Assembly (NCBI RefSeq): GCF_041248615.1
Contig: NZ_CP158426.1
DNA: 64,000 nt
DNA from: Escherichia coli
Lineage (GTDB): Bacteria > Pseudomonadota > Gammaproteobacteria > Enterobacterales > Enterobacteriaceae
Reading direction: 5' to 3' (one strand)
Part shown: in pieces, positions 1,435-3,186 of the stretch
How positions within the stretch are numbered: the stretch's first letter is position 1
Layout of the letters: every line of letters starts with the position of its first letter
Translations under genes and position numbers: made by a program
Notes under the pieces: model-generated
Told to the model about the DNA's origin: nothing
Seen by the model: only the letters and a program-made list of their open reading frames with translations
The model's database searches: none

Positions 1435-1856
1435 ACGGTATAAAAACGGGGCTGGGGATCACGCCGGGTGAACACATTATCAGTGCTGATTCTGCGCTCA
1501 GCAGAAATATCCGGCAGTGTTTCTGCCTTTCCTGTCATGGCCGGTTGATTTTGCAGACAGATGCTCAGGGGGCGTGGTTTGAGCACGATTTACATGTCCT
1601 GAGCGAGCAACAGAAGGCAGCCTGCGTGGTGCTGAATCCGGAAAAGTCCCACCCTTACATTGAGGATATGGAGATGTTTTTATCGCCATTACCGGTCGTG
1701 CTGGAGTGGCATTGTGTGATGTGTGAGCAGTTTTTTCATGGGAAGAAATTCTGTGAGGCCTGTGGTACGGGGATTTATTGCAGAGCGGTATGTACGAAGT
1801 CTGTTTACAGCTACCAGCCAGACTTGTTTCAGGACTGCGGAGGTGCGAGTACTTAA
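1431..1856 (+). CDS. hypothetical Cys-rich zinc-ribbon-like protein (141 aa), paralog of upstream ORF
   Basis: CxxC-x12-WFEHDLH motif plus CxxC-x9-CxxC-x4-C-x3-C cluster; start codon overlaps upstream stop (ATGA at 1431-1434), suggesting translational coupling. Confidence 0.5.
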   Translation: MNGIKTGLGITPGEHIISADSALSRNIRQCFCLSCHGRLILQTDAQGAWFEHDLHVLSEQQKAACVVLNPEKSHPYIEDMEMFLSPLPVVLEWHCVMCEQFFHGKKFCEACGTGIYCRAVCTKSVYSYQPDLFQDCGGAST

Positions 1857-2057
1857 TCCGAAATGCCCGACCTGCTCAGGGCGTTCAGAAGTATCGGAAC
1901 CTGCATTTTATCTGGTGTTTCGCACCCACCCCGTTCGTGACACAAAGGCGCGACACCGGATATCCGCAGTCCTGCTTACCTGAATAAAACCCGGGGTATT
2001 GATTGTGTACTGTGGTGCGAAATCGCACCGTGATCGCGGATTCGCCGAATCCGCACT

Positions 2058-2300
2058 GTGGTGTCAACCAACCATACGCGAGAGTCCTCTCCGTATTTAT
2101 CAGTGCCTCAGGACGATTTCTGCATAGTTAATCCAGGGGGCTGCATTGTTTATTTCCCTGCTAATGGACGTGACATCCAGGATATTCATGATCCTGATTT
2201 CCCTGAGCAGTATCAGCGCTTATTGGAGCGTCTGGATTATCAGACGATGCCCGGTACTAAAGCATCAGGCCAGCGTAACTCTGGCTACAGCGGTTTTTGA
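2058..2300 (+). CDS. doubtful ORF (80 aa), possibly a gene remnant
   Basis: ORF begins with GTG, contains no ATG start, no clear ribosome-binding site; same frame as ORF 2328..2894 but separated by two in-frame stops. Confidence 0.25.
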   Translation: MVSTNHTRESSPYLSVPQDDFCIVNPGGCIVYFPANGRDIQDIHDPDFPEQYQRLLERLDYQTMPGTKASGQRNSGYSGF

Positions 2301-2327
2301 CCTGTTGTAACTGTAAGGTGATTTATT

Positions 2328-2894
2328 ATGTATACAGAATCAAATGTTAAGCTTTCCTGTAACGCCCTCTGGCAAAAGTGTGTCCTTGCAACTCTGTATC
2401 GGGCTGCAGCCACACATCCTGAAATTAAATTATTACAATTTAAATTAATACCAGGGCAGGGTATTAATAAGGCCATTCCCTCTCTGATGGCTGATTTTAC
2501 TGGTGAACTGCATAGACTCATTTCTGAATATTTGCAGTGTAAGCGACGTAAAGAGCAATCTGTTGAGCCCACCCCTTTATATTATCTCTGGAGTAGGGAA
2601 GCTGTGGCTAACGATACCACTCCTTATCTTATGGTGCTGCTACTTAATAACGATGTCTGGTGTAAGAGTCGTGAGGTGGTGGTTCTCAGAAATCTGATTG
2701 AGCAGGCGTGGGGAAAAGTATTGGGTGAAGATAACTCCATTACACATCTGGTTGTGTATCCTGAAGTGCTGTCGTTGGTATTTGATGCAGCTAACACATA
2801 CAACGCTGAGCCTGCTGTACTGGAACAGACGGCCCGGGCTTACATTGAATCACATGGTACCATTGAACGTCATCTTGGGTGTAGTGACTTTTAA
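2328..2894 (+). CDS. hypothetical protein (188 aa)
   Basis: ATG preceded by AAGG about 8 nt upstream; moderately AT-rich; followed by a stem-loop at 2911..2938. No family recognised. Confidence 0.45.
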   Translation: MYTESNVKLSCNALWQKCVLATLYRAAATHPEIKLLQFKLIPGQGINKAIPSLMADFTGELHRLISEYLQCKRRKEQSVEPTPLYYLWSREAVANDTTPYLMVLLLNNDVWCKSREVVVLRNLIEQAWGKVLGEDNSITHLVVYPEVLSLVFDAANTYNAEPAVLEQTARAYIESHGTIERHLGCSDF

Positions 2895-2910
2895 CGTCAG
2901 GTGATGCATA

Positions 2911-2938
2911 AGGGCCTTTCGCTGAGAGGCCCTGTTTA
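2911..2938 (+). terminator. putative intrinsic terminator after ORF 2328..2894
   Basis: 7-bp stem AGGGCCT/AGGCCCT with 9-nt loop followed by GTTT; T-run is weak. Confidence 0.3.
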
Positions 2939-3156
2939 CACAATTAAATAAATCGAGCCCGACCAACAATTTTGATGTTAACAGCAGGATTATTGAGGGG
3001 CAATCAATGTGTTCTTCGGTAGCGATTACGGTAGTGAACGGACCTGCTGTCTGAATGGCATCGATCCGCAAGCGTATCGGCGCCATATTCTGAGCGTACT
3101 ACTGAAATGGCTAATGGCAGTAAAGAGAGACTTTACGTATATTTGCATAAAGCAGG

Positions 3157-3186
3157 ATTTTACGACTAGTCAACATTCTTTATAAT
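3157..3186 (+). promoter_or_regulatory. putative sigma70 promoter of orphan gene
   Basis: TAGTCA (3157-3162), 18-bp spacer, perfect TATAAT (3181-3186), about 55 bp upstream of ATG 3240. Confidence 0.3.

Follow-up and report, generated by a model that had tools for sequence, protein, structure and literature searches.

When two open reading frames (ORFs) follow each other in the same frame and only stop codons keep them apart, it has to be asked whether they are the pieces of one broken gene or two genes that happen to share a register. This question is raised by a locus of Escherichia coli located near the beginning of the window (the whole stretch of 64,000 nucleotides that was analysed). 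The upstream ORF (2058..2300, plus strand), read directly from the sequence, starts with GTG, encodes 80 amino acids and is preceded by the in-frame stop TGA 2031-2033; the downstream one (2328..2894, plus strand) starts with ATG, encodes 188 amino acids and has its stop codon at 2892-2894. The two are in frame with each other (2328-2058 = 270), and two in-frame TGA codons are found between them, at 2298-2300 and 2319-2321. An AAGG (2315-2318) sits within TAAGGTGA, and the AAGGTG core (2315-2320) ends 7 nt 5' of ATG 2328. Rereading of the sequence confirmed the ORF, TGA, AAGG and ATG positions of a preliminary description of this DNA, which had proposed either a remnant of an older gene followed by a functional 188-aa protein or the breakage of a longer gene. 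The 80-aa ORF had also been described as having no ATG and no obvious ribosome-binding site. The former is correct for its start but not for its interior, where codon 64 is an ATG (QTMPG); the latter stands, as no Shine-Dalgarno-like sequence is found 5' of GTG 2058, nor 5' of GTG 2103, an alternative start used by PGAP in some genomes.

By itself, the same-frame arrangement is not more than chance would give (1-in-3 odds), and short ORFs are common, the first 6 kb of the window containing 53 with a length of 40 aa or more. The non-random feature is that both ORFs match one protein family in Pfam. The evidence presented below makes it very probable that the locus derives from two tandem paralogues of this family (PF11726), here named A and B, in a CP4-type island, of which A has been reduced to a stub by a rearrangement and B is complete (Table 1).

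Table 1. Features of the A/B locus and its upstream flank (positions of the window).
Feature	Position	Strand	Remarks
Non-coding DNA after the second zinc-ribbon (DUF7828) gene	1857..2144		Source of codons 1-29 of the 80-aa ORF
Chimaeric 80-aa GTG ORF	2058..2300	+	29 unrelated codons plus the 51-codon gene A remnant
Gene A 3' remnant, codons 154-204 and native TGA	2145..2300	+	tblastn, Pfam, pN/pS
A-B intergenic spacer, 27 nt, with B's Shine-Dalgarno sequence and the second in-frame TGA	2301..2327	+	
Gene B, complete 188-aa YagK/YfjJ-family protein	2328..2894	+	
GC-rich stem-loop, 17 nt after B's stop	2911..2933	+	10-bp stem, 3-nt loop

Domain Content and Intact Relatives

Direct BLASTP of the two ORFs against each other or against a nearby 199-aa paralogue was uninformative, these proteins being too diverged, and profile and family alignments were used instead. 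The 80-aa ORF matches PF11726 with 20.4 bits at profile positions 119-164 of 170, i.e., at the C-terminal end, and lies below the gathering cut-off of 25.8 bits, as a fragment and not a member protein. The 188-aa protein scores above that cut-off (39.3 bits, E 8.3e-10), its residues 52-157 covering profile positions 26-135 of 170, and its C-terminus carries the family motif (ERHLGCSDF vs QRNFGYSGF). Since the profile is followed through positions 119-164 and then restarts at 26-135, the two matches cannot come from one domain.

Relatives in which both genes are intact lead to the same result. In E. coli FDAARGOS_1059 (locus L013) and strain C3 (L014), A and B are separate RefSeq genes 27 nt apart, annotated as "inovirus Gp2 family protein" (A, 204 aa, WP_000628304.1) and "YagK/YfjJ domain-containing protein" (B, 188 aa). 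Both frames are also open in APEC E19035 (L007); A is full-length but frameshifted or nonsense-bearing in L004, L005, L006, and L015. All 13 loci compared have kept the stop TGA of A, the spacer, the AAGGTG and the ATG, and the spacer shows at most 2-3 substitutions among A/B loci, measuring 27 nt in 12 of them and 21 nt in L016. The shorter spacer (L016 919-939) has lost 6 nt (TAACTG, between the direct repeats TGTAAC/TGTAAG), with the Shine-Dalgarno sequence and the frame kept. The 90% cluster of A comprises 717 sequences, with relatives of 200-208 aa across Enterobacterales, and that of the 188-aa form of B comprises 3028. All close relatives of B begin with MYTESN, and the distant ones (178-212 aa) align from B residue ~6 onward.

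Alignment with intact homologues, which the preliminary description had suggested as a check, thus gave a clear outcome: the homologues begin consistently at the equivalent of ATG 2328 and none spans both ORFs. The suggestion of a longer gene that was broken fails, as in the intact relatives A and B each have a start and a stop codon of their own, and TGA 2298 is native to A. The alternative of a remnant next to a functional 188-aa protein was essentially right, except that the remnant derives from a separate neighbouring paralogue and not from an earlier form of the 188-aa gene. At no time did the two ORFs make up a single gene; that they are in register is a coincidence due to the length of the 27-nt spacer. 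The ancestral order, which some strains still possess, would have been A (204 aa, ending in TGA), the 27-nt spacer with B's ribosome-binding site, B (188 aa) and a GC-rich hairpin.

According to an approximate reading of coverage classes, window positions 1900-3000 are matched over 80% or more of their length in ~497 complete E. coli genomes, which appear to share the truncated-A junction; by the same approximate reading, most of full-length A is present in ~362. Some of the islands with full-length A differ upstream: a degraded "TOTE conflict system archaeo-eukaryotic primase domain" pseudogene lies directly before A (L004 3317-3577; L005 and L006 3180-3522), and ahead of it come a further YagK/YfjJ paralogue (187 aa) and a DUF3987 (P4-alpha-like) gene. 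The upstream genes of the full-A islands form a satellite-like replication module, unlike the zinc-ribbon module of the window.

The Gene A Remnant and Its Breakpoint

In a tblastn search of window positions 1800-2330 with intact A, residues 154-204 of A were found at 2145-2297 with 78% identity (E 2e-26), and similarity upstream of 2145 was at chance level (best E 0.65). What survives is therefore 51 of the 204 codons of A, together with its own TGA stop. The megablast comparisons place the border at the same point from both sides: in the full-A classes, similarity to the window does not start before 2145-2148, L004 and L006 match 2145-2341 only, and L008 matches only up to 2145. The junction is nevertheless uncertain by ~45 nt, because of a possible weak similarity to A at 2101-2146 (CAGTGCCTCAGG...). 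The DNA before it (1857-2144), which has no Pfam match in any frame and no Rfam match, accompanies the zinc-ribbon (DUF7828) module in L008 and L009. Given a remnant of 51 codons and a junction at ~2145, the 80-aa ORF is a chimaera of 29 codons of unrelated, incidentally open DNA and the last 51 codons of A, and 2145-2300 is a pseudogene fragment of a separate tandem paralogue.

The close relatives of the 80-aa ORF are all short (122 aa or less), and in the longer ones the similarity does not extend upstream of V(H/Y)FPANGR, where they continue with the family core ...IWAKEYTQSFKCHYHVCLFFNKDAYY.... The family-invariant residues L186 and K188 are changed to Q and M in the remnant of the window, and these changes are private to it. 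Annotation of the remnant by PGAP is inconsistent: L011 has an 80-aa CDS here, L002, L003, and L012 have a 65-aa one that starts at GTG 2103, and GF43, a 100% identical genome, has none.

Mechanistically, a single rearrangement would have fused the DNA downstream of the zinc-ribbon gene pair to codon 154 of A, at ~2145, removing the promoter-proximal three quarters of the gene, including its His-x-His core. GTG 2058 would be an accidental start within the unrelated DNA, and the frame of the remnant would still be open only through its shortness and its former coding role.

Two candidate features of this segment were considered and rejected. A degraded 5' portion of A upstream of 2145 was suggested by a 14-nt match, ATATCCGCAGTCCT ("YPQS" vs "YTQS"), which 11-17 of 300 shuffles equal, and frameshift-corrected translations extend no Pfam match. 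Palindromes and 9-nt direct repeats at 2009-2063 (GTGCGAAATCGCAC; GCGGATTCGCCGAATCCGC) gave no significant stability (z of -1.36), with no compensatory changes in L008 or L009 and no Rfam match, and were treated as chance.

A separate rearrangement was noticed in strain 4314 (L008, beside tet(A)), in which window 1762-2145 runs directly into window 1623-964, copied in inverse orientation (L008 3087/3088). Position ~2145 recurs here as a breakpoint in an apparently independent event, which may be a coincidence or mark a fragile or module-boundary site.

Gene B and the Hairpin Downstream

Gene B (WP_000287899.1) has kept its full length; its ATG is the start codon in every relative, and a good Shine-Dalgarno sequence precedes it. 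Its ORF is intact in 9 of the 11 sampled loci, the other two (L005 and L015) carrying nonsense alleles; in L004 and L006, B is deleted after codon 5. As these alleles show, B can be dispensed with. A search for promoters gave no sigma-70-like site 5' of either ORF. In some genomes PGAP starts B at the internal Met54, giving 135 aa (L003 4588-4995; L007 3340-3747); this is an annotation inconsistency and not a truncation, the 188-codon frame, the Shine-Dalgarno sequence and the ATG being intact there.

Within B, positions 2450-2462 exist in two forms. The form in the window, L001, and L002 is ACCAGGGCAGGGT; in L003, L005, and L007 it is ACCTTGCCCTGGT, which differs at a single base from the reverse complement of the former. 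An inverted repeat, TTAATACC / GGTATTAA, borders the segment, and the protein toggles between IPGQG and IPCPG. This micro-inversion polymorphism looks like a quasi-palindrome template-switch mutation.

The stem-loop that follows B had been placed at 2911..2938 and called terminator-like. The structure is real at 2911-2933, where 2911-2920 pairs with 2924-2933 around a GCU loop, and the extension to 2938 merely adds GTTTA. The stem is strong (-17 kcal/mol, z = -3.6; 2 of 200 shuffles fold as well), but a proper U-tract is missing: of a Rho-independent terminator it has the stable GC-rich stem-loop and not the U-run, the 3' side being GUUUACA with only three consecutive U, and a terminator scan with a threshold of 5 T in 8 passed it over. 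The hairpin is present in all B-bearing relatives, in some of them with a 5' arm shortened by 1 nt (-14.2 kcal/mol), and probably stabilises or weakly terminates the B transcript. A segment corresponding to window 2863-2960, which comprises the hairpin with ~30 nt of the 3' end of B before it and ~27 nt after it, is also found alone and unannotated in E. coli strains such as ACN001 and ET220 (91-98 nt, 97-98% identity); these lone copies are presumably still smaller relics of the same island.

Selection on the Remnant and on Gene B

Substitutions were compared in 11-13 loci taken from a "spread" listing; as these sequences are related and the counts small, the comparison is supportive and not definitive. 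The 51 remnant codons of the truncated class show 3 synonymous and 12 nonsynonymous changes (pN/pS 1.14, indistinguishable from neutral), with no third-position excess among the truncated-class loci. The same 51 codons in full-length A show 6 synonymous changes and 1 nonsynonymous (pN/pS 0.05; Fisher p 0.007 vs the truncated class). Gene B accumulates 41 synonymous and 31 nonsynonymous changes plus 3 nonsense ones (pN/pS 0.25; binomial p 3e-9 vs neutral), its segregating changes being distributed as 21, 11, and 43 over the three codon positions, i.e., with a third-position excess. These patterns support, though not definitively, a remnant that drifts neutrally and a gene B under purifying selection.

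Island Context

In the identical genome GF43, the unit lies in a CP4-type island with an integrase, AlpA, and Hha/YmoA. The order there is a 199-aa Gp2-like gene, two zinc-ribbon genes, the A stub and B; the island also includes an IS66 transposase fragment, a 233-aa hypothetical gene, and fragments of Mu, ISL3, and IS3, and elsewhere Ag43, a YeeP-like GTPase, an antirestriction protein, RadC, and CbtA/CbeA.

Several features of the flanks were observed in passing. From position 760 on, but not before it, the window is 99.9% identical to the GF43 island (L001); the left end of the window carries an IS256-family transposase fragment (63-725), and the upstream 199-aa Gp2-like gene of GF43 is replaced here. 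The tandem paralogous "putative zinc ribbon" genes (DUF7828 plus Zn_ribbon_11) occupy 1045-1434 and 1431-1856, and their stop/start overlap, ATGA 1431-1434, suggests that they are translationally coupled. About 75 nt after the hairpin, 3009-3185 encodes a C-terminal remnant of an IS66-family transposase (...CCLNGIDPQAYRRHIL...), given by PGAP as an incomplete "transposase domain-containing protein".

Alternative Explanations

A single gene of ~279 codons interrupted by nonsense mutations at TGA 2298 and TGA 2319 would explain why the ORFs share a frame and a Pfam family with a gap of only 27 nt. The profile order is nonetheless the wrong one, with the C-terminal part first and then a restart; the intact relatives L013 and L014 have separate genes that share the TGA and the spacer with the window; the family members are uniformly 180-210 aa, the second TGA belongs to B's Shine-Dalgarno sequence, and none of 5.8 billion proteins spans both ORFs. 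The probability left to this explanation is negligible. Programmed read-through or recoding of the stops, joining A (or its remnant) to B, would account for a spacer length divisible by three in every locus compared (27 nt in 12 of them and 21 nt in L016) and is equally improbable: two in-frame TGA codons would have to be bypassed, no recoding signal or Rfam element was found, the fused product is absent from databases, and the spacer holds a normal Shine-Dalgarno sequence at the right distance.

More can be said for the idea that the 80-aa (or 65-aa) ORF is a functional small protein, a free-standing C-terminal piece of YagK/YfjJ, although we regard it as very improbable. In none of the 7 sampled loci of the truncated class is the frame interrupted, several genomes have it as a CDS in their PGAP annotation, and the junction is common to hundreds of genomes. 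Against this, the pN/pS of 1.14 (12 nonsynonymous vs 3 synonymous changes) comes with no third-position excess, neither GTG 2058 nor GTG 2103 has a Shine-Dalgarno sequence, the annotated start varies, the newest annotation of an identical sequence omits the ORF, and two family-invariant residues are mutated here (L186Q and K188M). Moreover, the 51 codons are predicted to be devoid of the beta-sheet core of the fold. Decay could also have reached B, so that neither ORF would be functional. Such a reading draws on the loss of every candidate catalytic residue in B, the nonsense alleles in L005 and L015, the deletion in L004 and L006, the abundance of IS remnants and the lack of a predicted promoter close by. 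It is countered by the pN/pS of 0.25 with its third-position excess (43 vs 21 and 11; p 3e-9), by intact frames in 9 of 11 loci and a full-length cluster of 3028 sequences, and by the invariant Shine-Dalgarno sequence and ATG together with the retained scaffold residues and predicted fold, and we consider it rather improbable. The preferred reading, a tandem pair with a truncated A and a complete B, makes of the whole arrangement a case of ordinary decay in an E. coli genomic island, mostly annotated already in RefSeq.

Family Features and a Possible Function for Gene B

In the literature, YagK/YfjJ appears as annotation mentions only, and no functional work was found; NCBIfam and PADLOC gave no matches for A, B, or the zinc-ribbon proteins, and no defence-system assignment. 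More information is provided by the alignment of A-type relatives, in which R37, D39, R65, W97, E100, H108-x-H110, N116, W140, P158, Y185-L-x-K188, K192, R197, and G200 are invariant. H108-Y-H110, a His-hydrophobic-His motif, is present in 37 of 37 A-type relatives, and the equally invariant Y185-L-x-K188, on its C-terminal side, is a Y-x-x-K motif with a presumed catalytic role. The H-x-H segment gives weak matches to Pfam REP_ORF2-G2P and Rep_1 and to the PHROG "replication initiation protein", and many family members have precomputed PF23343 matches. Alignments and predicted models together suggest that the family may have an HUH-type Rep/nickase-like fold.

Gene B departs from this pattern. 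At the positions of R37, D39, R65, H108, H110, Y185, K188, and K192 it has Q, K, D, P, L, Q, R, and E, respectively, and all the B alleles examined are devoid of the His-hydrophobic-His and tyrosine motifs; W97, E100, N116, W140, P158, R197, and G200 are retained. The nearest distant relatives of B (P0112-P0114, ~30% identity) still have H-Y-H. The predicted model of B (pLDDT 75.7) shows the same topology and the same top matches, fold-level similarity being kept. On the basis of these alignments and models, the A-type proteins are most likely Rep-like nickases and B a non-catalytic derivative. Devoid of nuclease activity, B would act, for example, as a DNA-binding or regulatory partner. We put forward tentatively, as a possibility well short of the probable, that B is a conserved, catalytically dead HUH Rep-like derivative, serving as a DNA-binding regulator, decoy or partner that controls the nicking, replication or mobilisation of CP4-type islands. 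The same tentative reading holds that selection keeps B beside active-type paralogues, namely A and the upstream 199-aa Gp2-like gene of related islands. If true, B as a nickase-derived regulator would be the first functional handle on the YagK/YfjJ family.

Implications and Comparison with Known Systems

For annotators, the 65-aa or 80-aa "YagK/YfjJ domain-containing protein" CDS of many E. coli genomes is a pseudogene stub, and the 188-aa gene starts at the equivalent of ATG 2328 and not at Met54. For work on the E. coli y-ome, the putative HUH Rep-like signature of YagK/YfjJ, apparently lost in the still-constrained sub-lineage of B, may be useful. Beyond annotation, the result matters little.

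Both ORFs match, B above the curated cut-off, the family of YagK and YfjJ, from the E. coli K-12 cryptic prophages CP4-6 and CP4-57 (PF11726, formerly DUF3296 / Inovirus_Gp2), and size (~190-210 aa), island context and RefSeq product names agree with this. Unlike the family in general, B represents a diverged, almost Escherichia-only sub-lineage that has lost the invariant R, D, H-x-H and Y-L-x-K, and unlike the complete members, the upstream ORF retains the last quarter only. With regard to the predicted fold, the closest known system is that of the Rep/nickase domains of the HUH superfamily (parvovirus NS1, AAV Rep, SIRV1 ORF119, and rolling-circle Rep; PF23343, Rep_1). As for the remnant, it resembles the truncated pseudogene remnants of IS-rich E. 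coli islands, which are likewise cut at the 5' side by a rearrangement junction, neutral and inconsistently annotated, and, like them, it adjoins transposase fragments (IS66, IS3, ISL3, and Mu). The only twist with respect to such remnants is that the A remnant lies in frame with the next, paralogous gene.
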